The notes under the pieces were generated by a model. It did no database searches. It was not told the DNA's origin and was given only the letters and a program-made list of their open reading frames with translations. The translations under genes were made by a program, and so were the position numbers. Below are positions 45,589-64,000 of a stretch of DNA of 64,000 nt, in pieces (position 1 is the first letter of the stretch; every line of letters begins with the position of its first letter). The stretch is from a virus. The stretch lies in IMG/VR virus record IMGVR_UViG_3300020474_000007, positions 10,498 to 74,497 of that record; one strand, given 5' to 3'.

Positions 45589-45590
45589 CT

Positions 45591-45905: not shown

Positions 45906-45953
45906 ATTCTCTCCTATCTTAGTATATTAGCTTGTACAAAACAAAAAAACAAT

Positions 45954-48189: not shown

Positions 48190-49753
48190 TAGTTAATTCC
48201 TTAATTTTCATTAGTTTGTCTAGAAGATTAATTCCTAGAACGTCAAATTTTACATGACCTAGTGCCTCTAGATCAGACATTTCTAATCCTGCTATTTTTT
48301 CTGTAGAACCTTTCTGTACTACCATTGGGCATACGTTTTTCAGTTTGTCTTTGGAAATGACAACTCCGGCAGCGTGTTTTCCCTGAGTTTTAAATGTGCC
48401 TTCAATTTCAATTGCTTGTTGAAAATACTCTGCATAATCACCATCGAGTTTACCATCATCAGTAATGTGGCAGAAGTCTCGCAGCTCATCTGCACGGTTT
48501 AGCAAAGACCATCTTATGATTGACCTGTCTTCACCGTCCATCTCTGCAAGTTGATCTGATATGTCTGCTTCATTTGGAACACTCTTAGTTATAGCATTCA
48601 TTTCACTAAAAGAACAAGCCTCATTAATCCGAAGAACTTCTTTTATTGCGCTTCGCCCTTGTAGTCTTCCAAAAGTAATCATCTGGCTGACATGTTCGTT
48701 TCCATATGTTTTTTTTAGATAGTCTATAACATCGTCGCGCTTTTTGCCCGGAACGTCCATGTCAATATCTGGTAGTGACACATGACCTCCAGTATTTCTA
48801 CCAGCGTTATAAAATCTTTCAAACAAAAGATCATGTTCTACTGGGTCAATCTTTGTTATACCAACTAAGTAGGAAATTAAGCAACCTGCGGCAGACCCTC
48901 TTCCCGGCCCAGCCAGCCAACCCATATCTTGTTCTACGTGGCGTATGATGTCTTGTACAATCAAGAAGTATCCAAACAAATCAGCGTCTTTGATGACCTG
49001 AAGTTCTTTTCTAAATCTGTCTCCATAAACTTGTTGTTTATCTTTGTCTTTTCCCACCTTTTGTTTTAAAAGTTTAGTATAGCCCTCTCTTGCCATGTTT
49101 GTTAAATAATCTTCTTGCGATAGATTGTTGGGACATACAAATTTTGGAAGCATGGGTGGATTAAGTATCTCGTATTCCTCACAAGAGTCGTATATGTATT
49201 CTAATTCTTTAGTTGTTTTCCCTTTGGTAATACACTTATCATCTTTAGAAAAATACTCTAGAATTTCTGTAGGCAAATCATTTTTTCTGATTTTAGTTTG
49301 TATTTTAGGCAAAGTGGTTTTAAGAGCAGAACATAATAACACCCTATGCAATACAGCTTGCTCTTTTTTGACATAATACGAAGGCTTAATATTGTCCTTT
49401 GATTGCTGTAGTGCTATTAAGTTGTTCCTGCTAATTATGTCTTTAGCTATATCTTTCGGTATATTGCCATTTTCACCTGTCATAGAAACCATTTGAATTA
49501 GGTCATGCCATCCATCTTTATTCTTAGCATACACAGTAGTGCTATCAAACGAGCAACCAATAATCGGCTTGATGCCAACATCTTTACAGGCTTGATGAAA
49601 AGATACTGCGCCAGATATAGATTTGTAATCTGTAATTCCACAGGCAGGATAATCGTTATCAGCGCACATCTTTGCAAGCTCGTTTGGCTTTGAGAATCCT
49701 CTAAGCAAACTGTAATGTGTAAAATTCTTCAATGGAAACCAATTCAAAATCAA
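48179..49753 (-). CDS. dnaE: DNA polymerase III alpha, N-terminal part (reduced PHP, palm, thumb)
   Basis: THYSLL, GITD, GPGRGSAAG, LLFERF, PDIDMD, GKHAAGVVI, KFDVLG. Confidence 0.92.
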   Translation of the reverse strand: MILNWFPLKNFTHYSLLRGFSKPNELAKMCADNDYPACGITDYKSISGAVSFHQACKDVGIKPIIGCSFDSTTVYAKNKDGWHDLIQMVSMTGENGNIPKDIAKDIISRNNLIALQQSKDNIKPSYYVKKEQAVLHRVLLCSALKTTLPKIQTKIRKNDLPTEILEYFSKDDKCITKGKTTKELEYIYDSCEEYEILNPPMLPKFVCPNNLSQEDYLTNMAREGYTKLLKQKVGKDKDKQQVYGDRFRKELQVIKDADLFGYFLIVQDIIRHVEQDMGWLAGPGRGSAAGCLISYLVGITKIDPVEHDLLFERFYNAGRNTGGHVSLPDIDMDVPGKKRDDVIDYLKKTYGNEHVSQMITFGRLQGRSAIKEVLRINEACSFSEMNAITKSVPNEADISDQLAEMDGEDRSIIRWSLLNRADELRDFCHITDDGKLDGDYAEYFQQAIEIEGTFKTQGKHAAGVVISKDKLKNVCPMVVQKGSTEKIAGLEMSDLEALGHVKFDVLGINLLDKLMKIKELTNGK

Positions 49754-50283
49754 ATCCTCTTTCTAAAAACTGCTAAGCCTTGTCCTTCTACAACCTTATC
49801 TATTACTTGATAGTGTTCTTCGACAACTCTGTAAGCACTTCTACATTCAGGCCAGTAATCGTGCATAAACATATAGCCATCGTCCGTGATATAATCTTTT
49901 ATAAACTTAGCACACTCAGGTCTAGCTCTTCCGTCAATTAAAACAGCATTAAATTTGGTCTTAAAAAATTGTGGATATTCAATGTAAGTTTTAAAATCTT
50001 TTGCTCTAGATGATGTATCTAATTCTTGCCAAGTGGTAGCTTTTATTCTATTTATATCAGGAGTCGCGTAATCCCTAGATACATGAGTTATATTTACATT
50101 CTGACCACAATTATTCTTAACCTTATTAAACCATTTCTCATCATGCTCTAATGAGTAATATTCGTTAACGTAGTTTGGAAAAAGTAACGTACTTCCTCCA
50201 CTTCCGTATTCTAACATAGAATAATAGGATTTCAAATATTTTAATATAGTCTGTATTTCTGTACTACTCATCCACGGTTGCAT
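49750..50283 (-). CDS. class I SAM-dependent methyltransferase
   Basis: MLEYGSGGST, YSLEHD, VLIDGRAR, MHDY. Start reassigned to ATG 50283 (GGAG RBS). Confidence 0.8.
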   Translation of the reverse strand: MQPWMSSTEIQTILKYLKSYYSMLEYGSGGSTLLFPNYVNEYYSLEHDEKWFNKVKNNCGQNVNITHVSRDYATPDINRIKATTWQELDTSSRAKDFKTYIEYPQFFKTKFNAVLIDGRARPECAKFIKDYITDDGYMFMHDYWPECRSAYRVVEEHYQVIDKVVEGQGLAVFRKRI

Positions 50284-50890
50284 AGCTGTCTCCATCATAC
50301 CTGAACTTACTGTCATGCGCACCGTCAGCTGGTATTCTTACCCACTTGTTTTTATGTAAGACCTCAAATGTGTATGCCAGTTGATCTTTGTCCGCTAAAG
50401 AGTTTGTTTCAAAATTTACAGTATTTATTTTTATCTTTTTATTTCTAACTAATTCTACCACCTGCAAAACTATATCACAGTCATACCCCTCTGTATCAAT
50501 CTTTAAACTTACAATCTCGTTAATTCCAAATTTATCTACCAAGTCTTTCATGGTGATACATTCAACGTCTTCTGATTTTACTAACTCTTCATAGTTTAGA
50601 TTTAGTCTGTCGCATTCCCTTTTAATTGTTGGGTGTATTCCATACATTTGATTGCATCCTCGTAACCAATCTGGAAGTCTTTTGCTCGATATGGTCTCAA
50701 GCGGGAGGTAGTATATTTTTTCTGTTCCAGATCTTTTACATACCGCTGCATGAACTTTATGCGTGTTGGGATATTCTGGTATAGAATCAATGTATCTTTT
50801 AACTGGTTCTACATATACGCCCCTTTGATTGTTTGTAGGAACTGTGTACCTGAAGTCTGAAGTTCCTATGTCAATAAAGTCAACCTTCAT
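50264..50890 (-). CDS. FkbM-family methyltransferase
   Basis: FIDIG, GVYVEP, VECIT, LKIDTEGYD. Confidence 0.85.
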   Translation of the reverse strand: MKVDFIDIGTSDFRYTVPTNNQRGVYVEPVKRYIDSIPEYPNTHKVHAAVCKRSGTEKIYYLPLETISSKRLPDWLRGCNQMYGIHPTIKRECDRLNLNYEELVKSEDVECITMKDLVDKFGINEIVSLKIDTEGYDCDIVLQVVELVRNKKIKINTVNFETNSLADKDQLAYTFEVLHKNKWVRIPADGAHDSKFRYDGDSYATVDE

Positions 50891-50892
50891 AA

Positions 50893-51567
50893 TTATATTC
50901 CTTCGTAATTTTTGTCAAAATAGAGATATTCTTCAATCTCTGGATATAGTTCAATGTATTCCTTTGTTTTGCCAAGTGGAACATTAACAGGTTGTGGCTC
51001 TACATAGATAGGTATCTTTTTTTGATGCTTTAAAACTTCTGGCACAAAATGTTTTCCTAGAAACCATTCGTCAGCACCAAACACTGTCTTATCGTCTTTA
51101 TATTCTTTCATCAATTCTTCCATCTTGAATGGTAGTTGTTTTGCACCTACGCACCCAGCCATGTAATATCTAGCTGTTTTACTTGTTTTTCGCGCATGAG
51201 CAACCCAAATAAAGTGAGCAATTGACGGTGTGCTAGCGAAGTGCTGCATAGATAAAATATCGTTTCCTTGCATTTTCCAATCTAAGTCCCTACATATCGC
51301 TATGTCACAATCATCGAAAGCTAGAAATCTCCAGAAGCAACCTTCTCTTCCATTGCTAGGTGGCATTTCTATCAGTTCAACATTACTCATAGTAGATAAA
51401 GTAATTAATATTTGTTTGTTTACAGTGTTGTCATGATATACTCTAAATTTCCAATTAGGTAAATATTGCTGACAAAATCTGGCAGACACAGGAGCATTCA
51501 TAGCATACAACCTGTAGGATCTAGGAGAAGATCCAAATAGACATGTAGACACAGCTGCTTTTATCAC
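50893..51567 (-). CDS. GT-A-like glycosyltransferase-related protein
   Basis: CLFG, PNWKFRVY, FWRFLAFDD..IAICRDLD (DxD), FGADEWFL. Confidence 0.6.
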   Translation of the reverse strand: MIKAAVSTCLFGSSPRSYRLYAMNAPVSARFCQQYLPNWKFRVYHDNTVNKQILITLSTMSNVELIEMPPSNGREGCFWRFLAFDDCDIAICRDLDWKMQGNDILSMQHFASTPSIAHFIWVAHARKTSKTARYYMAGCVGAKQLPFKMEELMKEYKDDKTVFGADEWFLGKHFVPEVLKHQKKIPIYVEPQPVNVPLGKTKEYIELYPEIEEYLYFDKNYEGI

Positions 51568-51569
51568 AA

Positions 51570-51665
51570 TTATTTATCTTCTTTCAAGGGAGGCAATGGC
51601 CTTTTCTCAGGCTCTTTTGTCGTAGGGCTGTCTGTCAAGGGTATTTTTGTTGGCTCTTTCGTCAT
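51570..51665 (-). CDS. putative 31-aa microprotein MTKEPTKIPLTDSPTTKEPEKRPLPPLKEDK
   Basis: Not in the ORF track. It overlaps the 3' end of the PAP2 gene, spans the gap and stops 2 nt before the next GTG. AAAGG lies upstream. Confidence 0.45.
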   Translation of the reverse strand: MTKEPTKIPLTDSPTTKEPEKRPLPPLKEDK

Positions 51666-52323
51666 TTTCAAAACCTTTCTTCATCGCAATATAGAGAGAT
51701 TTACAAGCTAATTTACTAGCGTCGTTGTCTGATGGATAATGAACGCCTTGTAGTATTCTAGCAAGACCACAGTATTCTGACAACCTAAAAAAGTCTTTAG
51801 TATAATGTGGGTACAAGTCAGATAGAGTATGAGCAGCCAATTCCGAATACATTACATGACCGCTAGGGTATGATGGTGTGTGGTGAGTATCTGTTGCCAG
51901 AACTTTTATTTCTATGTCATGGTGTGGAGCAATTTGAGCTGGCCTAGCTCTATTAAAATAATATTTTAAAACATAAGTGTAATGTTCAAGAATATTATAA
52001 TTTCTGTGGAAAACATCTGTTGGAAATTTCAAGTCTCTCTCAAGCAAAAACTGGTAATATAGCTCTAGCGGATCTTGGTCTACCACATGGATGAGATTAA
52101 GTTCTGCATTGCTTCTATTTTGAGTAAGTTTACTTACTTGCTTAAGCTCACTGATTGTTTTTGAACTGCTATTTTTAGAGGGGTTGTTTAAAAGTTTTTT
52201 CCAATCCACTCCTTTTATAGTATTCAAATCAGACTCATATTCAATAGGATTTTTAAAATACCCTATATCATCTAAGTCAATATTATTGCTAATGATAGCG
52301 TCTACTTTATTTATCAGTGACAT
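51607..52323 (-). CDS. PAP2-superfamily phosphatase / haloperoxidase-like protein
   Basis: KYYFNRARP, PSYPSGH, ARILQGVHYPSD. Confidence 0.88.
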   Translation of the reverse strand: MSLINKVDAIISNNIDLDDIGYFKNPIEYESDLNTIKGVDWKKLLNNPSKNSSSKTISELKQVSKLTQNRSNAELNLIHVVDQDPLELYYQFLLERDLKFPTDVFHRNYNILEHYTYVLKYYFNRARPAQIAPHHDIEIKVLATDTHHTPSYPSGHVMYSELAAHTLSDLYPHYTKDFFRLSEYCGLARILQGVHYPSDNDASKLACKSLYIAMKKGFENDERANKNTLDRQPYDKRA

Positions 52324-52534
52324 TGTTTTTATGCTCTATAAAGTCTTTGTCTAATCTATGAACTAATCTTTCTCCAGCCCTACGTCTAAAACATGGCAAA
52401 ACACCATGTATACACAAATATACACCAGCTTTGATGCAACACAATCCATGACCTACGGCAAACTTTAAATGCTGCCAATAGGTCATGTTATTGTGATTTA
52501 AATGATCTTTCCACTTTTTTACCAAGCCTTGCAT
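52307..52534 (-). CDS. small hypothetical protein (DUF6356-like)
   Basis: HLNHNNMTYWQHLKFA...CIHGVLP pattern; the start is uncertain. Confidence 0.55.
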   Translation of the reverse strand: MQGLVKKWKDHLNHNNMTYWQHLKFAVGHGLCCIKAGVYLCIHGVLPCFRRRAGERLVHRLDKDFIEHKNNVTDK

Positions 52535-53154
52535 GACCAGTATCTGGCTTTCCATCTAGGACCGGGATTTGCGCAGTTGTGTCTAGCTCTGAAGCTTTTG
52601 CGTCTATCGGGATCGTTTTTCTTAATCTTCATATTAGGATCGCCAAAGTTGACCTTAACTACGTTACCCTTATCGTTCTTTACATAAACACTTCTTTTCT
52701 TTGGTCCGTCTGGAGTTAGAAATGGCTTTCCAAGCTTTACTTTCCTGCCTTGATATTCAGCAGCTTTTCCTTTATACACAAGGGTGGTATTGTCTTTTCT
52801 GTAGACTCCCTTTCTCCTGTATATAAACTCTTCTCCAGTTTTTGGATTCTCATATTTGTATGAACTTTTACCCTTGCTCGGAGTTGATTGAGCTTTTTTC
52901 CAAGCCTCTGGATCTGGCCTGTCTTTATCGCCTTTTTTAGCTGGTTTATAATCCTTGCCTTCTCGCTCTTTTTTCTTGCGAATATTTTCCCACAACCCCG
53001 GCTTTGCCTCCGAAATATCCCATTCTTCTACCTCTTCGCCAAAGTCTTCATATTCTGCTTCGGCAGGTACATAAAAATTGTCCTCTGTAATTTCTTCAGT
53101 AAATCCATATGCTTGTTTATTATATTCGTCGTCTAAAGAGTCCATGAAAGACAT
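52519..53154 (-). CDS. conserved phage protein, acidic N-terminus and basic C-terminal domains
   Basis: PGLWENIRKKK and AEYQGRKV...NFGDPNM...RRKSFRARHNC...KARYWSC are motifs recalled from large aquatic phages. Confidence 0.65.
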   Translation of the reverse strand: MSFMDSLDDEYNKQAYGFTEEITEDNFYVPAEAEYEDFGEEVEEWDISEAKPGLWENIRKKKEREGKDYKPAKKGDKDRPDPEAWKKAQSTPSKGKSSYKYENPKTGEEFIYRRKGVYRKDNTTLVYKGKAAEYQGRKVKLGKPFLTPDGPKKRSVYVKNDKGNVVKVNFGDPNMKIKKNDPDRRKSFRARHNCANPGPRWKARYWSCKAW

Positions 53155-53155
53155 A

Positions 53156-54025
53156 TCATTCTCCTTTTTTAAATGTGATTTTCTTAGCTTTTGCTAGCAA
53201 TGCATCTAAACTATATACTGGCACTCGCTCCTTAAAATGATTATATATATCTTGTATCATTTGGTGGTCTGGATCTTGCGTTATTTCCATCCATCCAATG
53301 AAATAGTTCCAAATTCTGTCCTCTAATATTAGCCTATATTTAACACCGTTTGGTCTTCCAAATCTATGATTCCATCCTACGGTTGGTACGCAAATATTCT
53401 TGCCACCATTTCTCCTAAACTTTTCTGAAATGTACCCTTCTTCCCCTCCAAAACCAATAAAGTGACTACTTATTCCGGGCCAATGTTTTTTTTCAAAAGA
53501 ACATAAGCCCATCCCATTCATAGGTATTTCAAAAGGTTTTCCTAGTTTGTAACTTTCTAAATTGGTGGCCCATATACCGTACATATCTCCGCGCCACTGT
53601 GGATCAAAATGTGTTGATACATTTTTTAGATCATCATACAGCAACGGTCCTTGAACTAAGTCCTTACAGTCTGGTTTTTGCCAATAATAGTTAAGTAAAT
53701 TATCTATAGCGTTGTGCTTTAATAATACATGACAGTCTAAAATTAATATATATTTTCCACTAGCATGTTTAACTACATCATATTTATTGAACGAACTCGG
53801 GATTTTATTGTCTTGAGGTATATATTTGCCTAGACTCCCCAAACTTTCGTCCATGAATTTTTTTACAGCCTTACCGTGTTCTCCACTGGGATTAGTGTCT
53901 ATAACAATAAATTCTACAGCATCAGTATTACATATACGATGATACATTCTTAATGACTGTATGGTAAAAAACACACCGTCATAGTCATCGTAAGTAGCCA
54001 TTCCTATGCTTAATTTTTTTTCCAT
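53156..54025 (-). CDS. glycosyltransferase family 2 (GT-A)
   Basis: LSIGMATYD, EFIVID, YILILDCH, GFGGEE. Confidence 0.85.
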   Translation of the reverse strand: MEKKLSIGMATYDDYDGVFFTIQSLRMYHRICNTDAVEFIVIDTNPSGEHGKAVKKFMDESLGSLGKYIPQDNKIPSSFNKYDVVKHASGKYILILDCHVLLKHNAIDNLLNYYWQKPDCKDLVQGPLLYDDLKNVSTHFDPQWRGDMYGIWATNLESYKLGKPFEIPMNGMGLCSFEKKHWPGISSHFIGFGGEEGYISEKFRRNGGKNICVPTVGWNHRFGRPNGVKYRLILEDRIWNYFIGWMEITQDPDHQMIQDIYNHFKERVPVYSLDALLAKAKKITFKKGE

Positions 54026-55050
54026 TAGCCGGGAGCCTCATAAAATCCAATGTCAAAACCTTTTCTAGTACAGTTTTTTAAGGTGTCTTCCATGCCGTGA
54101 TCTTTGAGGTGCTGCTGTATATACATACACATACTTTGGTCTGTACCCTCCCAATCATTTTTACAATAATGGCACAATTTCGTGCATTTCCAGTTGCTTC
54201 TGTCGTGAGAAATGGGTGTTGGCGTGTTATTTTGCTGTATTTCCTGAAAGCGGTTTTTAAGCATATTCAAGAACTTATCGTGATCTTCTCTATCAAAACA
54301 CATTGAAAAAGGACCGCCATCCTTAATATAGAATATAGTCATAATAGCCTGTTTATAGTCAGGGAATAACTTAGATATTGCATAATTATACAGTAATAGC
54401 TGGGGGTCTGACAGTAGCTTTTCGTATGTCTTTTCCTCCCCAGTAGCCCAATCTAGTCGTCTTCCAGTTTTCCAATCTATAACTTCTATGGTGTCATCAT
54501 TAGTCTGTGTGACGAGATCAATCGTACCTTTAATTGCTAGCTGTCCTTCTACCTCTTTCCCGTTTGGCATTTTATACTTAAATTTAGCCCAATCTTCTTC
54601 TATCGGTATATCAAAGTGTGGTTCTGGTGCTACTACATTTCTATTACGTGGGTCAAATTGTCCATCATTCCAATCTAACGCCTGCCAAGTCCATTTTCTG
54701 CACTCATTTTCATCCTTTTTGTGCCAATCGTGATGACTTTCTTGTGTGGTGTAAGCCTCATAGCTTTTGTCTACAAGGTCATTCACCAAGTCTATAGATC
54801 CTAATTCTGTCTTCAGGCATTTAAATTTTCCAATAGCGTCATCGTCTACTTTAAGGAACTTAACCTTGGGCTTATCTTGTTCAAACTTTTTGAGTCCAGC
54901 CAAAACTTCTAAAACTTTGTGAACAACAGTCCCTTGTACAGCCTTTTTGCCACTAAGGGTTTGATGTCCTAGAACGTAGGTTATAAAATATTGCATCTGG
55001 CAGTATGCATAATTATTATAACTAGAAGACCTGATATATGTAACTAGCAT
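54025..55050 (-). CDS. PD-(D/E)XK nuclease, RecB/AddB/Cas4-like, probable Fe-S cluster
   Basis: SSYNNYAYC, GTVVHKVLE, GTIDLV...IDWKTG, QLLLY, CTKLCHYC. Confidence 0.85.
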   Translation of the reverse strand: MLVTYIRSSSYNNYAYCQMQYFITYVLGHQTLSGKKAVQGTVVHKVLEVLAGLKKFEQDKPKVKFLKVDDDAIGKFKCLKTELGSIDLVNDLVDKSYEAYTTQESHHDWHKKDENECRKWTWQALDWNDGQFDPRNRNVVAPEPHFDIPIEEDWAKFKYKMPNGKEVEGQLAIKGTIDLVTQTNDDTIEVIDWKTGRRLDWATGEEKTYEKLLSDPQLLLYNYAISKLFPDYKQAIMTIFYIKDGGPFSMCFDREDHDKFLNMLKNRFQEIQQNNTPTPISHDRSNWKCTKLCHYCKNDWEGTDQSMCMYIQQHLKDHGMEDTLKNCTRKGFDIGFYEAPG

Positions 55051-55052
55051 AA

Positions 55053-55775
55053 TTATCTCCAGAGTGATTGAATATTTTTAATTTCGTTCCTTAAGTCATT
55101 TAAACTTTTTCCGTCATTGTTAATCACATGATCAAACTCATCCCAATCAAATACATTTCTATCTAAAGCGCATTCGCACGGATGATTGTCTGAAAATATA
55201 TCTCTATCTAATCTAATGACAACCCCTCCAGCAGCTTGTATTGCATTAACCTCGTTTGGAAATCTTACATCAGGTATAATAGATAGCTCGCTTTGCTCTT
55301 GGAGTATTTGCTTGATTGTGTAATCTACCCACACCTTGTCTTTAATCTCCCTCATAACGTCTGTTCCAAAATATTGTAAGAACTCTCTAGCTGTCATTGG
55401 ATGCTTCCATCCATTCTGTGAGTATGGTGTACTTGTATTTTTTTGATCGTCAGTTCCATAAACTTGCTCAGGAGTCAAATCAAATAGGCTGACACACAAC
55501 TGCTTTAAACAATCAGCAAAGTGATACACTTTGGTAAAAGGCCAAAGCTCTTGCTCGGCATATGCCGTAAATGCTTCATCTTTTCTGGTGATATCAAATA
55601 TTCCCCAACCTTTATCTCCAGACTCGTTGGAAGTTTCTATCATTAAACGACCTTGATCGTCTATGTCGGAGTTATATACCATCTTCTTGTTCTTAATAAT
55701 CTCTCCAGTTACAATGTTAGCAACGGTATTTTTACCAGACTGCTTCCTTCCAGAAATTCCTAAAATTTTTGTCAT
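55053..55775 (-). CDS. deoxynucleoside monophosphate kinase
   Basis: GISGRKQSGKNT, FADCLK, REFLQYFGTD, IPDVRFPNE. Confidence 0.88.
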   Translation of the reverse strand: MTKILGISGRKQSGKNTVANIVTGEIIKNKKMVYNSDIDDQGRLMIETSNESGDKGWGIFDITRKDEAFTAYAEQELWPFTKVYHFADCLKQLCVSLFDLTPEQVYGTDDQKNTSTPYSQNGWKHPMTAREFLQYFGTDVMREIKDKVWVDYTIKQILQEQSELSIIPDVRFPNEVNAIQAAGGVVIRLDRDIFSDNHPCECALDRNVFDWDEFDHVINNDGKSLNDLRNEIKNIQSLWR

Positions 55776-56797
55776 TAGTAAGTACCTTTCAGTTTTGCTA
55801 GAATATTATTTTTTATATCTTTGGTAGTCATGTCGCCAATATCTTTCTGAGTTAATTTGGGAAATGTGAGCCTAAACATTCTCCCTAATTGTCTTTTAAT
55901 CTGTACTTTGGATTCTCTGCCAGCCTGATCGTTATCTGTTAATATAATTAAATTAGTAATTGGAAGAGATAAAAGTCTTTCCTGCTGTTGCTGTGTTATA
56001 GTTTTTCCAAGTATGCTGACGGCATTGCTAACTCCGGCTTCATACATTCTCCACACATCGCCTTGTCCCTCCATTATGTATAAGCAAGATGTTTCAATTG
56101 CTTTTTTAATTGCTCTATGATAATTATAGAAGTAGAATCTTTTGTCAAAGCCCTTTGGGTGAAATAAAAACTTAGGAGTCTTATATTCTTTTACCGATCT
56201 TCCTATCAATCCGACAATATGTTTTCCATTTTCATTGTGAATGGGTATAACAGCCCTTTCTTTCATAGAACAGGGTTCGTAACAATCTCCGATGCCAAAA
56301 TATTTCATAGTCTTTTTGTTGAAACCTCTATTTACAAAATATTCTGAGGGACAACTCAATGTGCAATCAATTGATATTGGCTTTACTGTATTTTCACTCT
56401 TGTTTGGTGACTTAATAATTTTGACTAAATCTACAAAGTCATCTTCGTATTCAGAATCTATAGTGCTAGATGGAGAGTAAGTGTGTTGTACGTTTAAAAG
56501 ATCACAAGACCACTTAAGGACTTCTTTAAAACTAACTTCTCTCCCTTCCGTTTTAGATAATGCACCCTGAATCAGACCAAATATATCGTTACTGTATTCA
56601 TTTTGACAGTCTCTAGTCCAACATTTCCAAATACCTTTTTGTACAGAAAATGAGAAAGCAGTCTTGTTGTCGCTACCGTCGTGTACTGGGCATGTACAAT
56701 ACACATTGTCTGACATGACTTCGTAGTTCATGTCTAGTGCGCTAAAAACCTTTTCATGGTTCTCGTTCAATTTATCTTTAATTGTCTTCAAGTTCAT
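55775..56797 (-). CDS. dnaG: DnaG-type DNA primase
   Basis: Zn finger CPVH...CWTRDC; Toprim EGQGD and DNDQAG. Confidence 0.9.
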   Translation of the reverse strand: MNLKTIKDKLNENHEKVFSALDMNYEVMSDNVYCTCPVHDGSDNKTAFSFSVQKGIWKCWTRDCQNEYSNDIFGLIQGALSKTEGREVSFKEVLKWSCDLLNVQHTYSPSSTIDSEYEDDFVDLVKIIKSPNKSENTVKPISIDCTLSCPSEYFVNRGFNKKTMKYFGIGDCYEPCSMKERAVIPIHNENGKHIVGLIGRSVKEYKTPKFLFHPKGFDKRFYFYNYHRAIKKAIETSCLYIMEGQGDVWRMYEAGVSNAVSILGKTITQQQQERLLSLPITNLIILTDNDQAGRESKVQIKRQLGRMFRLTFPKLTQKDIGDMTTKDIKNNILAKLKGTY

Positions 56798-58238
56798 TTT
56801 TAATTTTTTCTAAAGATTCGTTACTAGCCATACCAGTATCGCCAACTGGTTGATTTTTTGCTTCATTCCTAGTTTGTAATTCAATTAATTTTGCGTGTGA
56901 TCCCATCATATTCATATTAATATAATCTCCATCGTCTAGCCCTCCACCATGTCTAGAGACTATGGGTACGAGTTTTCTATTTCCTAAGTTGGGGCCGTCT
57001 TCTGCTAATTCTTCTGGAGACTTAGATTTAAATATTGTAAATGAAGTACAAAGCCATATCAACCTATCAGAGCCACTCACAGCGTCTGTACTCTCCTTTG
57101 TGATTCCATCTCTATTTAATTGAACGAAAGACAAACAGGCTATATCTAGCTTAACGCAAAGATTGTGCAGTGCTGTTATTTGAAATCCTAACGCTTGGTA
57201 TTCCTGTATATTATTTGTTATAGATGTTGAAGACATAAGTTTTAGGTAATCGTATATAATTACGCAATCATTTGTTTTACCAGATTCATCAGTCTTTACT
57301 TCTTGGACAATCCATCTTTTAATCACATTTACGATCTGCTCAAAGGGTTGACCAGCCACACTAACATAGTTGTATGGAATAGATTCTAACAACTCACTTG
57401 CTTTTTTTACTTTTTCATATTTGTCGGGATCATCTACAAATTTACCCGTAGAAACTTCATGAATTGAGACACCACTAATGTTCGCTAGAAGGCGATTAAG
57501 ATGATCTTCTTTTGACATTTCTGTATCTAATACTAATACCGGAACTCCCGTTTTCGACACATTGAGAGCGACGTTATCAGCAAAAACTGATTTGCCAACT
57601 TTTGGTCTAGCCGAAACTAAGTCTACGCATTTCCTGCGTAACCCACCACCAATGGCTTCATCAAACCTAGAAAATCCAGTTGGTATACCTATTATGTCGC
57701 ATTTATTTTCAGATAGAAAATCTACATACTCTTCTATACCTTCCCCTATCCTTTCAGGATTTTCTCCACCATCATCTTCTCGTAAAAAGTCTGTTACTGG
57801 ATTCTCTAGTATTTGTATAATCTCATTGATACTTTCCGTACCATTGACGTTTTCAATGTCTTTGTGTATTTTGCCTGTAAGTGTTTTAATCTTCCTCGCA
57901 AATTCAAATTTCTTTGCTTGTAATCCAAACTTAAAAATATTATCTCTATGTACAGGAAACTCAGCTAAAGAATTTATATATGTTAATTCTTGTTTAGTAT
58001 TTACCGTCTCAGATAGATTAAGCTGCTCTGCCGCAGATAATATAGAAGGTATGTCTACCGTCTGGTCATTTAGAACTACGTGTTCAATGCATCTAAATAT
58101 AACCTTGTTATTTATGTTTCCAAAAGATTCTTCATTAACTATATCGGATATAGCCACATAGCCATCTATTCCGTGCTGCAACAATCCTGCAAGTATGGCT
58201 CTCTCTGATCCAACATCAATTAATTTTTCGCTACTCAT
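56778..58238 (-). CDS. dnaB: DnaB-like replicative helicase
   Basis: Walker A ARPKVGKS, DTEM, IIYDYL, QLNR, SRHG. Confidence 0.92.
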   Translation of the reverse strand: MSSEKLIDVGSERAILAGLLQHGIDGYVAISDIVNEESFGNINNKVIFRCIEHVVLNDQTVDIPSILSAAEQLNLSETVNTKQELTYINSLAEFPVHRDNIFKFGLQAKKFEFARKIKTLTGKIHKDIENVNGTESINEIIQILENPVTDFLREDDGGENPERIGEGIEEYVDFLSENKCDIIGIPTGFSRFDEAIGGGLRRKCVDLVSARPKVGKSVFADNVALNVSKTGVPVLVLDTEMSKEDHLNRLLANISGVSIHEVSTGKFVDDPDKYEKVKKASELLESIPYNYVSVAGQPFEQIVNVIKRWIVQEVKTDESGKTNDCVIIYDYLKLMSSTSITNNIQEYQALGFQITALHNLCVKLDIACLSFVQLNRDGITKESTDAVSGSDRLIWLCTSFTIFKSKSPEELAEDGPNLGNRKLVPIVSRHGGGLDDGDYINMNMMGSHAKLIELQTRNEAKNQPVGDTGMASNESLEKIKNELEDN

Positions 58239-58242
58239 AAAA

Positions 58243-58617
58243 TTATCCTACGCAGTTATCACATCTATAAAATTCACCATAGTTGTACCTACTGTCTATA
58301 GCAAAGCTTTTACCACACGCATGACATTTTACTTCTTTCTTTTTGGCGGCTGGTCTATTTCTAGGAGTTTTATTAATTTTTGGAGTAACAACGTCTCTGT
58401 GTTCACCCGTATCTACAAAAGTGTTTTTACCACCCGTCACTGGTCTTCTTCTTGAGTCAGATTTGACGTTGGTTTTTTCTTTCGACATTGTAAAGTTTTC
58501 GTCTGACCCCGTATCATTCACGGTCTTCTCTTCTTCAAAAGTTCCTCCAGACAGCGCTTTTAACAGAGCGTCTTTTTGTTCTTTCGATAGAGTTTTGATA
58601 AACTCTTCCATACTCAT
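58243..58617 (-). CDS. hypothetical protein with C-terminal Zn ribbon
   Basis: CHAC...CDNC. Confidence 0.65.
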   Translation of the reverse strand: MSMEEFIKTLSKEQKDALLKALSGGTFEEEKTVNDTGSDENFTMSKEKTNVKSDSRRRPVTGGKNTFVDTGEHRDVVTPKINKTPRNRPAAKKKEVKCHACGKSFAIDSRYNYGEFYRCDNCVG

Positions 58618-59099
58618 GACCTTTTCCCTTTCTCTAATAGTATATCTGCTTTTCGTCTTAGATCTTTTGCTTTGCAGTCTAATGATTGTACTCTTGAGAG
58701 TGCTATCTCTCTGTAGTGATCTACGACTCTAGCATATTCGTCATTTATAACAATTGTATTTCTTTTAGTTTCATATTTCATGTAGGTATCAAATTGATGA
58801 TAATTTTTGGCTACCATTTTGTCCAGCTTATCATTGCACCAATCTAGAGCAATCTTTTGCATATTTAATTCATCTTGTATATGTGAAGCGTAAGCATATA
58901 GTAGATATGCAAATTCAAAAGTCTCATCCTTACTCAAAGATGATAGAAGTCCAGAGTCAGCATCAGCAGCCGTTGTCCACTCTTCATTAAATTTCTTATG
59001 AAATCTCGCATGGCTAGCGTTTAAGAAGTCGTCTATCATTGCTCTTAAATCAGCCAGTTGCTCATTCGCCGTTTTCAATTTGATCTCTCCATTGCTCAT
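58614..59099 (-). CDS. helical hypothetical protein (possibly a UvsY-like mediator)
   Basis: Long amphipathic helices, located between recA and dnaB; function speculative. Confidence 0.5.
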   Translation of the reverse strand: MSNGEIKLKTANEQLADLRAMIDDFLNASHARFHKKFNEEWTTAADADSGLLSSLSKDETFEFAYLLYAYASHIQDELNMQKIALDWCNDKLDKMVAKNYHQFDTYMKYETKRNTIVINDEYARVVDHYREIALSRVQSLDCKAKDLRRKADILLEKGKRS

Positions 59100-59487
59100 C
59101 TGTGTCAGAGTACTTCAATACTATTATATCAATTTTGTTCAATTCGCACCACTCTATTTTATCTTCATCCTTGGCTTTTGCAGTAGCAAAGTCTGCTTTA
59201 TTTTTGTGAAAGAATGGAGTATATTTATAATGCTGTTGACCATGTACCTCTACAGCCAGCATAATCTGTGGTATATAAAAATCCAAATACAGTACGCCTT
59301 TTCTGTGCGATGGCGTACTTCCCGGCAATTTTACTTCTTCAAGTATTCTATAACTATGGTAAATAGTCTTCAAGAGATTTCTTGCGCGAACGTGGAACTT
59401 TGATCTCTTCCGCTTGTCGTTTGCGTCTACTGAATAGCTTGTTAAATTCCAAGCGTACTCTCTCCCATTTATACCAATAACTTTCAT
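59062..59487 (-). CDS. Vsr/DUF559-like PD-(D/E)XK endonuclease
   Basis: ILEEV, LYLDFYIP...AVEVHGQQHY, D..K.EWC. Confidence 0.75.
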   Translation of the reverse strand: MKVIGINGREYAWNLTSYSVDANDKRKRSKFHVRARNLLKTIYHSYRILEEVKLPGSTPSHRKGVLYLDFYIPQIMLAVEVHGQQHYKYTPFFHKNKADFATAKAKDEDKIEWCELNKIDIIVLKYSDTDEQWRDQIENGE

Positions 59488-59557
59488 TCAATGTTCCTAT
59501 CACAAGTTTAGCCAGAATAACTCCAGCAGCAATTTCAAATATACTAATTATATTCAT
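59354..59557 (-). CDS. small putative membrane protein overlapping the downstream nuclease gene
   Basis: Hydrophobic N-terminus IISIFEIAAGVILAKLVIG and a basic tail; ATGA-coupled to the upstream remnant frame. Confidence 0.4.
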   Translation of the reverse strand: MNIISIFEIAAGVILAKLVIGTLNESYWYKWERVRLEFNKLFSRRKRQAEEIKVPRSRKKSLEDYLP

Positions 59558-59631
59558 TTTTTAACTTCCGTGCTGCCCCTAGTGTTTTTAGGCACATAGG
59601 GGCAGTTCTTAAATCCACCATCACAATAGAG
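59554..59631 (-). pseudogene. start-less remnant of a small Cys-rich gene (LYCDGGFKNCPYVPKNTRGSTEVKK*)
   Basis: Resembles, from memory, the CCxxGCxxCPY (DUF5522-type) C-terminus. An in-frame stop lies 3 codons upstream and there is no start. Ends in an ATGA overlap. Confidence 0.45.
59573..59605. other. GC-rich stem-loop downstream of the DUF1559 gene
   Basis: CTGCCCCT (59573-59580) pairs with AGGGGCAG (59598-59605), with further inner pairing. There is no U-tract on the - strand. Confidence 0.55.
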
Positions 59632-59633
59632 GT

Positions 59634-60593
59634 TTAGTCAATGGTTCCTACTTCTCCACCAGCACGGGTAATAGCACCAGCGAAAACTCTCAAGTCTACG
59701 TTATCATTCACAGTTCTAGTAGAACCATCTGCATATACCGTATTCATAACACCCGGATGCATACTGTATGCTTCGCCATCATTAATAACGTTAAATGGTA
59801 CATTTCCAGCACAGCTTTTGCACTTGTCGCCATTGGCATCAACGCCGTGTAGTTTAAATGGCCCAAGACTGTCAGCCCATCCAATACACTGGTTAGTATC
59901 ACCTGTTGGAGACCTACCATTACTAGACTTATAAACATCAGGTCTACTTGCACACTCTACAATCATAAGAGTATTAGAAAAACCATCTCTAATATGTCCA
60001 TCTCTAGTAACAGCATCTTTTACAAGACAACCTTTAGTATGTTCACCCTTTGTTGCATAGGGATCAGGTGCAGGAAAGATCTTATCCTTAACACCAGTAA
60101 ATACTTCATAATCTGTATATCCAAGATTATTAGGATTTAAACTTGGTGCAGCACTGTCATCATCCCTACTAGGCCCATCAACATTAGCATAACCACCAGC
60201 AGGAGGAACTGCTGTTGGGCATATAAATACAGATGCATTTAAAGTAATAGCTTGAGTATTCTCCCACCAGTTTTTATTAAAGTCATAACCAGTGTTACCT
60301 TGTTCTAGATTAGAAAGAACAAACGCTCTCCAACTATGCTCTGTACCAGAACGATTGCCAGTGGTAGATTTTCCAGCAGAATCTATAGTCCATGCAGCAG
60401 CAGGGAAGTATCTCTGTGCATCCATATAGGTATGCATAGCAAGACCTTGTTGCTTTAAATTATTCGCACACGACATTCTTCTAGCAGCTTCTCTAGCTTG
60501 CTGTACAGCGGGAAGTAAAAGACCAACGAGAACGCCAATAATGGCAATGACCACAAGCAGTTCGATAAGTGTAAAACCTTTGCGTTTAAACAT
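59634..60593 (-). CDS. DUF1559 family prepilin-type N-terminal cleavage/methylation protein with H-X9-DG motif
   Basis: KG|FTLIELLVVIAIIGVLVGLLLPAVQQAREAARRMSCANNLKQ and C-terminal SMHPGVMNTVYADGS. Start ATG 60593 with AAAGGA RBS. Confidence 0.95.
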   Translation of the reverse strand: MFKRKGFTLIELLVVIAIIGVLVGLLLPAVQQAREAARRMSCANNLKQQGLAMHTYMDAQRYFPAAAWTIDSAGKSTTGNRSGTEHSWRAFVLSNLEQGNTGYDFNKNWWENTQAITLNASVFICPTAVPPAGGYANVDGPSRDDDSAAPSLNPNNLGYTDYEVFTGVKDKIFPAPDPYATKGEHTKGCLVKDAVTRDGHIRDGFSNTLMIVECASRPDVYKSSNGRSPTGDTNQCIGWADSLGPFKLHGVDANGDKCKSCAGNVPFNVINDGEAYSMHPGVMNTVYADGSTRTVNDNVDLRVFAGAITRAGGEVGTID

Positions 60594-60659
60594 ATCGTGA
60601 TTCCTTTTCAATAGGTAGGATATTTAAGGTGGGGACACACTATGTGCCTTTAATACCTT

Positions 60660-60669
60660 ATTATACCCC
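60660..60669 (-). promoter_or_regulatory. putative promoter GGGGTATAAT for the DUF1559 gene
   Basis: Lies in the largest intergenic gap of the - arm; one mismatch to GTGTATAAT. Confidence 0.4.
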
Positions 60670-60700
60670 TTGTCCATTTATAAACAGTGTTAGGATTATA

Positions 60701-61813
60701 TTAAAATAACTCTTTAATTTTATCGTATACAAATGCTGCTATATCAGGGTTATTATTCAAAAACTCAGCTAAGTTGTTAGCACCTTGAAATTTAAAGAAT
60801 CTCTCAATATCCTCTTCTTTGCTTGATATCTCATTTTTCTTTAAGATATCTTGTACAATCTTATTGTCTAGATCGTCAATTGCGCATTGCACTGTGTACC
60901 AAGCTCCAGCTGTTTTTATAAGCCTAAACTCACACGCAATTTGTACTACTTCTTGAACTTCATCTAGCCCAATACCGTAACGAATCCAGCTTTCTGCTGT
61001 GCTATTAGGTGTACCTCCAGCACACGATGTCTTTATATTCCAGTTAGCTATTTGCCCAACGTGTGGACCAGTATCTTTTGGCACTTGCCATCTTCCGCGA
61101 TGGGTGATTACCATGTTAGTTCCCGCTTGATACTGAAGCATGTTGCCACAATCAGCCATTTTAGATGGAGCGTATGGAGAGCCTCCAGTGTTTGCAATAT
61201 TATGAGTGATGCAAACAAGGATGGTTTTATTCTTCATCAACGTGCCACTAATTCTTTTAAAGAACATAGAGAGTAGTCTTGGTAAAGCGTTACGCACACC
61301 AGTTCTTACCTCTCCATCTAGTTCTACTTGGGGGACCATATTTGATAAAGAGTCTGTGATTATTAAAGCGCCCGGATCATTATTAATATAGTATTCTACA
61401 ATATTTAAAAAATCTTCTGCCGATAGGATCTTATCATCCGTAGATTGTACAATTAAGATACCTTCAGGATCTAGACCTTTGATGCCATCAAAGTTTTGTT
61501 TCGATAGTCTACCTTCTGTGTTTAGATAAATAACACGCTTACCCTTAGCTTGACACTTAGCAGCAAAATGCAAAGCCGTAGTCGTTTTACCAGACTTAGG
61601 ATCTCCTGTCATGACAACTACAGATCCCTCACGCAAGCCACCCCCAAGTGCAATATCTAATGCTGGTGATATGCCAACAACTTCTAACTGGTTTATATTT
61701 TCTAGCACTTCAGTCCCAGTGCTTACAACGTCACCATATTTACCAACAACAGAATTACTTACAACATCTGTGTCGAACTTGTTAGATACTTTTCTCTTCT
61801 TAACTTTACTCAT
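60701..61813 (-). CDS. recA: RecA/UvsX-like recombinase
   Basis: SPALDIALGGG, Walker A GDPKSGKTT, Walker B IITDSL, AGAWY. Confidence 0.9.
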   Translation of the reverse strand: MSKVKKRKVSNKFDTDVVSNSVVGKYGDVVSTGTEVLENINQLEVVGISPALDIALGGGLREGSVVVMTGDPKSGKTTTALHFAAKCQAKGKRVIYLNTEGRLSKQNFDGIKGLDPEGILIVQSTDDKILSAEDFLNIVEYYINNDPGALIITDSLSNMVPQVELDGEVRTGVRNALPRLLSMFFKRISGTLMKNKTILVCITHNIANTGGSPYAPSKMADCGNMLQYQAGTNMVITHRGRWQVPKDTGPHVGQIANWNIKTSCAGGTPNSTAESWIRYGIGLDEVQEVVQIACEFRLIKTAGAWYTVQCAIDDLDNKIVQDILKKNEISSKEEDIERFFKFQGANNLAEFLNNNPDIAAFVYDKIKELF

Positions 61814-62307
61814 AAATCCCTCAACTTATTTAGTGTACTTTTTTTATTTCCGTATTGCTTTGATCTTGCTTTTAATGGTTTTTGTTTAACTTCTTCAACT
61901 GGCTGACTCTCCTGTTTTGCTGTTGCTTCGGACGCTTTCACAATAGCTTTGAACTCTTTATCATACCTCTTTATCGCTTCAATTGCAAGTGGATTATATT
62001 TCCACCCTCTAGGTCCGTAACATTTTAGACCTACATGATAAATCTTATTAAAGTGTTTAGATCTAATTGCTGCGAATATGGTCGCGTCATCATACTTTTT
62101 TCTGAGAGACTTTGCTGCTCGCATATTTCTCTCGTACATTTCTTGATACTTACCGGGGATTTTCCAAAATTCATTTGGAGGTTTATCCATTTTGAATTCA
62201 TCAGTCCAACGGATAATTAACCACTCTGCAATGTAATCTTCAAATGTGCAATAACCTTCAGCAGTTATTCTTTTATAAGTGTTCTTCTTCGTTCGTTTCT
62301 TTGTCAT
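61810..62307 (-). CDS. basic hypothetical protein
   Basis: 165-aa ORF with ATGA coupling to recA. Confidence 0.65.
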   Translation of the reverse strand: MTKKRTKKNTYKRITAEGYCTFEDYIAEWLIIRWTDEFKMDKPPNEFWKIPGKYQEMYERNMRAAKSLRKKYDDATIFAAIRSKHFNKIYHVGLKCYGPRGWKYNPLAIEAIKRYDKEFKAIVKASEATAKQESQPVEEVKQKPLKARSKQYGNKKSTLNKLRDL

Positions 62308-62728
62308 TATAAATTAGCGCCTCTTCAAAACAATTTTCAACAGGATCTTTATCGGAATATACTTCAATTAAATCTGGCGTAGAAAAAGATGTTTTATGGA
62401 CAAAACCATTAACTAGACTACCCAATATTATACAATAAGTTGTGTCTGACGCAAGAGATCCTTTAACACCTTTAACTATGTAAATAGCTTCAGAATCTTT
62501 CGTGTCTATAGAAATTTCATGAGACCTGAATCTAACAGCAACATCTTTAATATAAAGTTTGTTTCTTGTGCAAAACTTTTTAATTTCTTTAACATCCCCA
62601 TCCTGCCTAAAATAGATCTTAGTCCCATTAGACATAGTGCAAACCACAACGGTAATATTTCCGTATTGACCAAAATCTTCGTTACACAATTTTCTCCACT
62701 GTTCTTCGCCAACGATAATACTAGTCAT
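62273..62728 (-). CDS. hypothetical protein
   Basis: 151-aa ORF with overlapping operon junctions. Confidence 0.65.
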   Translation of the reverse strand: MTSIIVGEEQWRKLCNEDFGQYGNITVVVCTMSNGTKIYFRQDGDVKEIKKFCTRNKLYIKDVAVRFRSHEISIDTKDSEAIYIVKGVKGSLASDTTYCIILGSLVNGFVHKTSFSTPDLIEVYSDKDPVENCFEEALIYNDKETNEEEHL

Positions 62729-63017
62729 GTTTAATTTTTCTTACACAAGACGGGTTCAATGTAGGTCTTCTTCTTTTTGCATCAGATATTGTCGATGCAT
62801 TTTCTGTCATTACGGTAGATCCTTTTTTGCTGATAAATTGTTCACCAGCTGTAATCGCAGTACTAGAACTTTTCTTCAAGAATGTTTTTTTGATATAAGC
62901 TTCTAGAGACTTCTGCGTTCTATCTAAATCTGCTGCAAGTTCTTCAATGTCTAATTCTTGCCAATGATGTTCAATGTAAAATCTTTCTGCTTTACTGAAT
63001 GGTCCTTTTTTAGCCAT
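62721..63017 (-). CDS. small HTH-like protein
   Basis: FSKAERFYI...DIEELAADLDRTQKSLEAYI. Confidence 0.6.
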   Translation of the reverse strand: MAKKGPFSKAERFYIEHHWQELDIEELAADLDRTQKSLEAYIKKTFLKKSSSTAITAGEQFISKKGSTVMTENASTISDAKRRRPTLNPSCVRKIKHD

Positions 63018-63366
63018 TTAAGTGGTTCCTTTGTGCTTGAGTATAGTATATCTTATTTCCTGTTTCAAGATACTTAATGTAGTTCTCAAATGTTTTCTTA
63101 CTAGCGTTGGAAAGGCGTAGATCAATCCTGTTTTCCCTATGACTGTCTGCACCTTTTTGGTCGTATATAATATTGTTATAAGTCAATATCTTATATTTGT
63201 ATTGCTTGTTGCCATGCCCCAAATTTATTACAGTGTTTTCTGCAAAAGCTTTATCATCTTCTGACAATGTTACTAGACCCTTTTTGTTATACTGTGTAGT
63301 AACAGAAGTTTTCTGTTGATCCTCTCCTGTTTGCCTTATAAACACGGAGTTAGTTTCATCATTCAT
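63010..63366 (-). CDS. hypothetical protein
   Basis: 118-aa ORF in the operon. Confidence 0.6.
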   Translation of the reverse strand: MNDETNSVFIRQTGEDQQKTSVTTQYNKKGLVTLSEDDKAFAENTVINLGHGNKQYKYKILTYNNIIYDQKGADSHRENRIDLRLSNASKKTFENYIKYLETGNKIYYTQAQRNHLNG

Positions 63367-63704
63367 TTCTTTCCCTCCATTATGTATTTCGTTTTTTGTT
63401 CTGTAGACATGTTATTAATTTGACTCCTCATTGACTGCTTCTCTTTTGCGGCTTTTTTGTCTCTGCTTTTATGTTCTATTTCTGATCTTTCATAATTTCC
63501 CATCTTAGACCAGTTACTATCCGCTTGACTTCCAACTGTACCTGAACTGTTCTTCATAAAAGAACCAAGCCCACCACATGGTATTCTTTCTAAAGAATGT
63601 TTACCACATGATGGGCATTTAGTCAATGCTTCATCGTGAATAGATTGTTTAACATCCTTTAGAGTCTTACCACAACTGTGGCATCCATAGTCGTATAACA
63701 TCAA
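63363..63704 (-). CDS. FmdB-family Zn-ribbon protein
   Basis: YDYGCHSCG...QSIHDEALTKCPSCG...LERI. Confidence 0.8.
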   Translation of the reverse strand: MMLYDYGCHSCGKTLKDVKQSIHDEALTKCPSCGKHSLERIPCGGLGSFMKNSSGTVGSQADSNWSKMGNYERSEIEHKSRDKKAAKEKQSMRSQINNMSTEQKTKYIMEGKK

Positions 63705-64000
63705 CTCTCCAGTGCGTACAATACTGCTCCTATAATTCCATTCCTCTGTATATCATGATACTCTAATTTTGAAATTCCGACACCAGAAACATCAGATAAT
63801 CTCTCAATACAGAAATCCAATCCGCTATCTCTATATATATCTGTCTGTTTATTATCCCCATTAATTAACGCTTTGGAGTGTTTACCCATTCTAGTTACGA
63901 ACATTTTTATTTGTTCTAGTGTACAATTTTGAGCCTCATCAAGTATCATGTATGCGTCATGAAAAGTAGAACCTCTCATAGTTTCTAAAGGTTCAAATCT
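63701..64000 (-). CDS. phoH: PhoH-like ATPase (C-terminal part; runs off the window)
   Basis: PLETMRGSTF, ILDEAQN, TRMG, GDNKQTD, DIQRN. The frame is open to position 64000. Confidence 0.92.
   Translation of the reverse strand, partial: RFEPLETMRGSTFHDAYMILDEAQNCTLEQIKMFVTRMGKHSKALINGDNKQTDIYRDSGLDFCIERLSDVSGVGISKLEYHDIQRNGIIGAVLYALES

Follow-up and report, generated by a model that had tools for sequence, protein, structure and literature searches.

Why should a marine phage carry a pilin-like gene from the largest paralogous family of planctomycete genomes? The question is raised by IMG/VR virus record IMGVR_UViG_3300020474_000007, an uncultured metagenomic contig of 74.5 kb with a CheckV completeness of 45%. 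We analysed its positions 10,498 to 74,497, a stretch of 64,000 nucleotides that we call the window and that is present in marine metagenomes from 13 studies, and focused on a minus-strand gene for a prepilin-type DUF1559 protein (Table 1). Planctomycete genomes are reported to hold 68–91 copies of DUF1559, also named SBP_bac_10: P. limnophila has 68 paralogues, two of them essential (PMC10632474), and R. baltica has 74, some of which are stress-responsive. In Tuwongella, proteins combining N_methyl and SBP_bac_10 are recovered in membrane fractions, and the genes encoding them often have signal-peptide genes on their flanks (PMC8567305). The literature searched contained no papers connecting DUF1559 with phages. 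The answer we prefer, about which we are evenly divided, is that the gene, acquired from a host and now carried by phages, would be a working copy of a particular DUF1559 pilin-like envelope protein found in marine Pirellulales-type planctomycetes, a reading built on comparative sequence analysis.

Domain profiles place the protein in this family. The match to PF07596 (DUF1559/SBP_bac_10; E 4.3e-39; 135.6 bits against a Pfam cut-off of 23.3) spans profile positions 1–267 of 268 and holds in a search of the whole record. The N-terminus, MFKRKG followed by FTLIELLVVIAIIGVLVGLLL, has the hallmarks of a class III signal: the codons after the leader specify F(+1)TLIE with Glu at +5, and both the N_methyl profile PF07963 (E 1.4e-8; 34.4 bits, cut-off 21.2) and the NCBIfam prepilin cleavage/methylation profile TIGR02532 (32.2 bits, cut-off 16.3) score above threshold. 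At the other end, TIGR04294 (H-X9-DG; NCBIfam) scores 26.9 bits against a cut-off of 19 over residues 281–302. An initial annotation, made from the sequence, had pointed to an intact prepilin site, KG/FTLIE (the slash marks cleavage), a LLLPAVQQAREAARR..C.NNLKQ signature and an H-X9-DG motif; all three stand in the translation, the last as H285-X9-D295-G296. F13, E17 and the hydrophobic stretch are invariant in an alignment of 103 sequences, as are H285 and D295 among the 103 orthologues. Ala replaces Gly at −1 in many phage copies and also in some ordinary host paralogues. The hydrophobic N-terminal segment is a membrane anchor and, among pilins, serves in polymerization.

The open frame (59634–60611, minus strand) encodes 325 amino acids counted from a TTG at 60611. 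The ATG at 60593–60591, giving 319 amino acids, is the likelier start because an AAGGA lies upstream of it, 319 amino acids is the length of most public gene calls in the protein's 90% cluster, and the ESM Atlas entry for the protein begins at residue 7. Sites of the AAGGA/AGGAG type also precede the start in other phage copies and in host copies. The locus had initially been drawn up to 60669; the gene lies inside that span, while the far end takes in the leader and a −10-like box and is not coding.

An AlphaFold model built from the 103 sequences (pLDDT 91, pTM 0.87) has an N-terminal helix of about 50 residues (15–66) set on an alpha/beta body with sheets. In an exhaustive VIA-align fold search, type IV pilins and pseudopilins made up 21 of 23 matches, all at Z ≤4.6 (best match: Z 4.6, 116 residues aligned, r.m.s.d. 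3.5), and Foldseek returned weak pilin matches only. The protein is predicted to adopt a pilin-like alpha/beta fold with large insertions. Sequence matches in the PDB (pilins, GspG, geopilin) are confined to the N-terminal helix, none covering the globular body; the BFVD viral structures held no match, and an ESM Atlas search excluding PF07596 returned noise only (0.85, glycine-radical fragments). We considered and rejected the major pseudopilin GspG as an identity: TIGR01710 scores 38.3 bits against a cut-off of 88.85, with only residues 11–105 aligning. The two proteins are alike in their N-terminal 90 residues (E 1.2e-9), and EpsG and PulG are among the fold-search matches, but the phage protein is 2.4 times longer and has a different globular domain.

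Is the gene really part of a phage genome, as initially annotated? The record encodes a tape measure, tail fibre and collar proteins and, on the opposite strand, a DnaB helicase, a primase, a two-part DNA polymerase, an exonuclease, a dNMP kinase and a UvsX-like recombinase. The window's gene order is common to 13 other viral contigs (group A), assembled independently from different samples, with identities of 76–97% for DUF1559, 76–80% for DnaB, 82–91% for UvsX and 56–65% for primase. DUF1559 is thus about as similar as DnaB and UvsX and well above primase. The same uvsX/DUF1559/endonuclease junctions recur in at least 13 contigs, which excludes a chimeric assembly. The AT-rich, phage-like codons initially noted are borne out by a GC content of 40.6% and a third-position GC content (GC3) of 23.6% in a window of 37.5% GC; the GC3 value indicates that the gene has adapted to phage composition. 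An artefact, whether a chimera or a bacterial fragment mislabelled as viral, might be suspected in an uncultured contig of 45% completeness, the more so as related short contigs were binned in bacterial metagenome-assembled genomes (MAGs), including a Rubritalea bin. However, the junctions shared by independent assemblies, the presence of the gene in four complete viral genomes, a GC3 that matches the phage, unlike host loci, the closest of which have 45–49% GC, and the tail and replication genes on the same contig refute this explanation for practical purposes and leave it a negligible probability.

Where did the phage gene come from? Its best matches among species representatives lie in MAGs named Planctomycetaceae (a Tara Oceans bin) and Pirellulales, at 63–67% identity, and the range for the closest orthologues of marine Pirellulales-type MAGs is 60–67%; other DUF1559 paralogues in the same host genomes are about 30–38% identical. 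The Planctomycetaceae locus is clearly cellular, with a sulfatase, a DUF72 gene and a PF13449 phytase-like gene. At E ≤1e-60, matches occur in 27 of 151 genomes of one family, exactly one in each (43–67% identity), and in a single genome, the Planctomycetaceae one, among 301 sampled evenly across the phylum.

Two trees, a quick one of 75 rows and a careful one of 59 rows (LG+G4), agree on a single orthologue group (support 100) that contains all 25 host rows with the phage rows scattered among them. The main phage clade, 21 rows with support 100/100, adjoins low-GC host clades and answers the initial annotation's question of whether a phage-specific clade exists. A clade of five phage contigs (about 55% identity, 100/100) is the sister of a different host clade (93/85), and two single phage rows (about 48% identity) fall inside a third (97/91, 97/90). 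An approximately unbiased (AU) test, applied to the group of all phage rows as defined after the tree had been seen, rejects a single clade for the 29 phage rows (delta lnL 231, p 3e-65). Together, the trees and the AU test indicate that phages took the same orthologue at least three times. By these comparisons the phage gene arose inside a host orthologue group whose synteny is itself conserved.

The donor is thus a planctomycete, of a family whose MAGs are named Planctomycetaceae and Pirellulales by NCBI, which keeps the host evidence inside the Planctomycetes–Verrucomicrobia–Chlamydiae group; the phage's host is probably a planctomycete of the same family, in line with the initial proposal. 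Host prediction by CRISPR spacers had also been suggested. In a spacer-like DNA search of window positions 44001–64000 against the 151 host-family genomes, all matches lay inside the DUF1559 gene itself, the search scoring two candidates per genome only and so not showing absence. A literature search found no characterized phage for this planctomycete family. We rejected Rubritalea (Verrucomicrobiota) as a donor: of the two short contigs in its bin, one specifies exactly the protein found in a planctomycete MAG, which makes binning contamination likely. The 1.7 kb Rubritalea-binned contig (L039/L040, G003 vs L050, G305) also bears part of a phytase-like gene.

The gene occurs in a second phage lineage as well. 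Eighteen further viral loci carry it at 67–91% identity within flanks unrelated to the window's, and most loci of this lineage share a gene order of their own, in which sugar epimerases and a sulfotransferase surround the gene and rIIA, rIIB and a clamp loader follow. Four of the contigs are the complete genomes mentioned above, of 157–171 kb. The lineage's UvsX is only 36–38% identical to the window's, and no homing endonuclease of the window's kind lies near the gene. Between the two lineages, nucleotide similarity spans from 6 nt past the ATG to the stop codon, and the lineages are intermixed in the gene tree, from which we conclude that the gene moved between phages as a unit. There is one such gene per phage genome.

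The gene could be a passenger without a phage role, spread among phages by recombination or by the adjacent homing endonuclease. This endonuclease, directly downstream in the window, is 91–99% identical among related contigs that are otherwise diverged (55–71% for their primase and dNMP kinase); it is probably a recently spreading mobile gene, and through co-conversion it may make the neighbouring DUF1559 and uvsX genes more alike. Together with the intermixing of phage lineages, this favours a passenger. Yet all full-length phage copies seen are intact, and pairwise dN/dS among them is 0.05–0.22 at dS values up to and above 1. The second lineage holds the gene in a conserved position with no such endonuclease nearby, the same orthologue was captured independently at least three times, and the control region described below is conserved with compensatory changes. 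These selection and recurrence data largely refute a passenger gene, which we regard as very improbable.

Searching viral contigs for DUF1559, as had been proposed, returned 303 IMG/VR stretches encoding prepilin/DUF1559 relatives. The best 80 of the 303 lie nearly all in low-GC contigs, and a phytase-like gene adjoins the DUF1559 gene in none of these 80. Further phage DUF1559 genes in IMG/VR, at 30–39% identity, sit in low-GC contigs of up to 172 kb. The complete 171 kb genome G454 encodes, besides the gene under study, a second, unrelated DUF1559 paralogue (L079:1417–2490, minus strand; about 90723–91796 of G454:C1) between a PD-(D/E)XK nuclease and a dNMP kinase. Its product of 357 amino acids has the leader MNKKA/FTLIE, matches PF07596 with E 1e-46 and belongs to a different paralogue group. 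We did not adopt the label T4-like for the second lineage, because a Gp23 search that found none there was also negative in control genomes and is uninformative.

What has selection preserved in the phage copies? We compared them with 85 host-conserved columns, defined as columns at least 90% conserved among host orthologues. In 77 of the 85, at least 90% of the main phage clade keeps the same residue, and most of the remaining columns carry conservative substitutions. Cys73 is lost in the phage clade: 23 of 25 host orthologues have Cys at this position, whereas 19 of 25 phage copies have Ala. A phage-specific Cys195 is gained. Compared with planctomycete DUF1559 proteins, the phage copy is alike in its full-length domain, N_methyl signal, H-X9-DG tail and upstream layout; it differs in residing in lytic-looking large phages, in its GC3 of 24%, in a leader of 6 rather than about 25–30 residues, in being about 14 residues shorter than the orthologues, and in having no phytase-like neighbour. 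Judged by these patterns of substitution, the phage copies have diverged conservatively from one host orthologue, in ways that would preserve its function.

A protein of this kind depends on processing machinery. The initial annotation saw no prepilin peptidase or pilus genes in the window, and our searches for prepilin peptidase (PF01478) and the type II secretion/type IV pilus ATPase (PF00437) likewise found none in the 74.5 kb record, nor in the four complete related phage genomes. By contrast, all 5 candidate host genomes that were checked encode Peptidase_A24. A phage that supplies a subunit only, with no peptidase, ATPase or partner enzyme, could be deploying a dominant-negative protein that titrates the prepilin peptidase or the assembly platform and so shuts down host pili or secretion. 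Ala at −1, found in several copies, slows cleavage of Pseudomonas pilin, and the loss of Cys73 and gain of Cys195 in the phage clade could also fit interference. But Ala at −1 occurs in ordinary host paralogues too, almost all host-conserved positions of the globular domain are kept under purifying selection although a mere blocker would not need this, and for a blocking role truncated PilA-like phage proteins exist (PMC12952977). We consider interference of this type improbable.

How would the phage gene be expressed? The initial annotation had proposed a promoter of its own, which holds in part: a generic sigma-70 scan of the 60612–60700 gap found nothing above chance, whereas the −10-like box GGGTATAAT is unique in the window and conserved across lineages. 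Its core, GGTATWAT, is kept upstream of the gene in phage groups A and B, in locus L008 and in the independently captured 55% clade. Farther upstream are tandem pentamers, the first of which, TAATA, shares bases with the stop codon of uvsX. TAAYA-N6-TAACA occurs 21 times in 730 kb of phage loci; 17 of these pairs, from 17 of 28 loci, are placed 108–162 nt ahead of the codon at the cleavage site. The composite CTAACA-N15-35-GGTATWAT is found once in the window against 0.03 expected; in three complete phage genomes it stands upstream of this gene only. A terminator scan found none after the gene.

Downstream of the box is a stem-loop, probably at the 5′ end of the transcript. Across 17 aligned phage copies its 5 pairs are 91% paired with compensatory changes in 5 of 5, and its sequence varies among copies while pairing stays; covariation is 0.50, compared with 0.31 for shuffled alignments (0 of 500) and 0.09–0.24 for slid controls. 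A single-sequence fold of the leader RNA is not significant alone (z −0.45). The full layout, two TAACA-type pentamers, a GGGTATWAT box and a stem-loop 10–17 nt further on, is found in both lineages and in the 55% clade.

Host orthologues have a similar arrangement, with 3–4 CTCAT/CTCAC pentamers at an 11-bp period, then a hairpin and then AAGGAG. A triple CTCAY-N6 motif has about 108 matches in 101 host-family genomes, against about 12 for a reversed control, and 14 of 30 sampled sites precede prepilin-type genes, while others precede exported-protein genes. Winged-helix response regulators typically bind direct repeats spaced by one helical turn. The tandem CTCAY repeats are a candidate regulon operator, and we infer that a single factor would recognize the repeats of phage and host. 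CTCAY pentamers also lie 140–300 nt upstream of many DUF1559-family genes (L037, L084–L090, L176–L208), and the repeats precede a signal-peptide protein gene and, in four genomes, a gene for a protein resembling an amidohydrolase with a twin-arginine translocation (TAT) signal.

This upstream layout bears on another role, superinfection exclusion or receptor masking, which the initial annotation had raised. The phage subunit would enter a host pilus, pseudopilus or crateriform fibre in place of the host subunit, much as Pseudomonas prophage FimU-like pilins do, and the infected cell would become closed to adsorption by rival phages or by the phage's own offspring. The rII genes beside which the second lineage's copy sits belong to a region of early genes in T4. 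The intact class III signal retains F(+1) and E(+5), residues used in pilin assembly; the predicted fold is pilin-like; and repeated capture of the same orthologue by unrelated phages would fit a shared receptor. There is also precedent: P-FimU becomes part of the pilus and keeps out phages that bind its tip, and virulent phages are among the carriers of PilA-like genes (PMC12952977). As here, P-FimU/PilA-like proteins are phage-encoded type IV pilin-like subunits that need the host's peptidase and assembly machinery, and copies are found in unrelated phage types, virulent ones included (PMC12952977). P-FimU belongs, however, to another protein family and another host phylum, acts in phage-versus-phage exclusion and is described as highly diverse as a result of rivalry among phages, whereas the phage DUF1559 copies are conservative in both dN/dS and host-conserved columns. 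Archaeal provirus SNJ2 likewise encodes type IV pilins, which rely on the host for secretion and assembly, but it is temperate, and its pilins are dominant surface filaments and the receptor for a second virus (PMC12426801). For DUF1559 proteins a role as surface fibres or receptors is hypothetical, and the host-like layout upstream suggests that expression follows host physiology and not a fixed early programme. Conservation and this layout make an auxiliary gene more likely than an arms-race surface decoy. We hold exclusion to be unlikely, with an appreciable minority chance, and it is compatible with the phage protein standing in for its host orthologue: the two are not mutually exclusive.

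What might a stand-in for the host protein achieve? The host orthologue comes with a fixed partner: the next gene downstream, on the same strand, codes for a phytase-like homologue in 22 of 29 cellular loci, and the exceptions are mostly cut by contig ends. The partner has 465–494 amino acids, a signal peptide and a match to PF13449 'phytase-like' (E 1.7e-40). Across seven extended host loci no other neighbour is conserved between host clades, and homologues of the two proteins co-occur on contigs in a large protein collection. The partner is modelled as a beta-propeller with generic fold matches, among them PhoX, which ranks no better than WD40 proteins; a PDB search with its profile gave no match. 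In the low-GC host clade nearest the phages, D-lactate dehydrogenase precedes the pair, which is followed by an open reading frame (ORF) of 151–175 amino acids and a 'choice-of-anchor I' protein (L084:4396–6111, minus strand, with equivalents in L089 and L090; NF038117, E 6e-141); other host clades differ in their neighbours.

Under the preferred reading, a working copy of the host protein, host RNA polymerase would transcribe the phage gene, perhaps under the regulator of the host DUF1559 genes. The pre-protein would enter the cytoplasmic membrane via its class III signal, host prepilin peptidase would cleave off the MFKRKG leader, and the mature protein would replace or supplement the host orthologue, so that the DUF1559/phytase-like envelope module would keep working as host gene expression falls. 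The module could serve to export or anchor the beta-propeller enzyme, or to scavenge nutrients. The phage gene would then act as an auxiliary gene like cyanophage pstS. Host-derived pstS and phage genes under host PhoBR are the precedent (PMC10976474). These too encode host-derived envelope or periplasmic proteins under purifying selection, are patchy yet recurrent among large marine phages, and have upstream direct repeats with an 11-bp period, of the kind bound by response regulators (PMC10976474). Here, by comparison, the pairing with a phytase-like gene is only suggestive. We did not adopt a Pho-box reading of the repeat, as the motif precedes DUF1559 and other exported-protein genes and the partner is a generic beta-propeller.

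Several observations weigh against the gene being a working copy of this sort. The generic fold of the partner makes nutrient scavenging speculative. The partner was not found in phages, so the pairing argument draws on host genomes only, and host assignment stands on gene-transfer logic. The phage CTAAC pentamers differ by one base from host CTCAY, and the host motif precedes other exported-protein genes too. High conservation would also fit a protein that blocks rival phages while having to stay compatible with host machinery. Four RNA libraries from two studies have contigs over the gene, some without a difference, and these contigs cover the gene more than its neighbours, a coverage that cannot rank expression. 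This is a weak hint, because the runs were chosen with this gene, the lineages share it and DNA carry-over is possible. Several of the RNA contigs (runs X15, X17 and X18) match exactly to 59634 and then continue into unrelated sequence; they derive from other phage lineages, where the gene has different surroundings, and this breakpoint in similarity coincides with the end of the ORF.

A bolder version of the working-copy reading is unlikely, though with an appreciable minority chance. Phages would repeatedly capture the orthologue together with its operator and 5′ stem-loop, wiring the viral copy into the host DUF1559 regulon; the DUF1559/beta-propeller pair would decide infection success, and the CTCAY/CTAAC repeats would be the regulator's site. 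If so, the envelope pair would be a nutrient-scavenging or export device or a shared entry port, and the regulator of the repeats would control the phylum's largest paralogous gene family.

The gene ties several large, abundant, uncultured marine phage lineages to one marine planctomycete family: one with complete genomes of 157–171 kb and rIIA/rIIB, the other with an estimated 165 kb and a 2045-amino-acid tape measure. A recurrently captured orthologue with a fixed partner and a tandem repeat offers a defined entry point into the DUF1559 family. To the few virus-encoded pilin-like proteins, known to act in exclusion or as receptors, it adds a conservative and possibly host-regulated case.

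Table 1. Features of the DUF1559 locus and its immediate neighbours, in window coordinates.
Feature	Position	Strand	Basis or remark
DUF1559 prepilin-type coding sequence	59634..60593	−	ORF list, Pfam/NCBIfam matches
Stop codon of DUF1559 gene	59634–59636	−	
H-X9-DG C-terminal motif	59724..59759	−	H285 to G296
DUF1559 (SBP_bac_10) globular domain	59691..60503	−	residues 37–307, PF07596
Hydrophobic N-terminal half of alpha-1 helix	60504..60575	−	mature residues 1 to ~24
Leader peptide MFKRKG	60576..60593	−	short, basic; ends in Gly(−1) of cleavage site
Shine-Dalgarno AAGGA	60602..60606	−	8 nt ahead of ATG
Stem-loop GGCACA-uag-UGUGUC	60634..60648	−	11–25 nt past −10-like box
−10-like box GGGTATAAT	60660..60668	−	sole copy in 64 kb window
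Tandem pentamers TAATA-N6-TAACA	60688..60703	−	11-bp period, candidate operator
UvsX/RecA-like recombinase, upstream neighbour	60701..61813	−	PF00154 E 4e-22; phrog_97 E 1e-33
Homing endonuclease, 141 aa, downstream neighbour	59062..59487	−	phrog_9084 E 4e-14

In the window we found no tRNA genes, and a tblastn search of GenBank phages gave no match to the DUF1559 protein. The DNA polymerase is split into ORFs at 45954–47555 and 48179–49753 (minus strand), which match successive parts of phrog_405 (positions 244–615 and 628–1054) and enclose a 226-amino-acid ORF (47509–48189). On the plus strand, 6460–36437 holds a run of large ORFs of 2045, 4337, 577, 184, 1566 and 1273 amino acids. Those of 1566 and 1273 amino acids have no PHROG match, and the first is a tape measure protein (phrog_28, E 1e-27) whose 2045 residues imply an unusually long tail.

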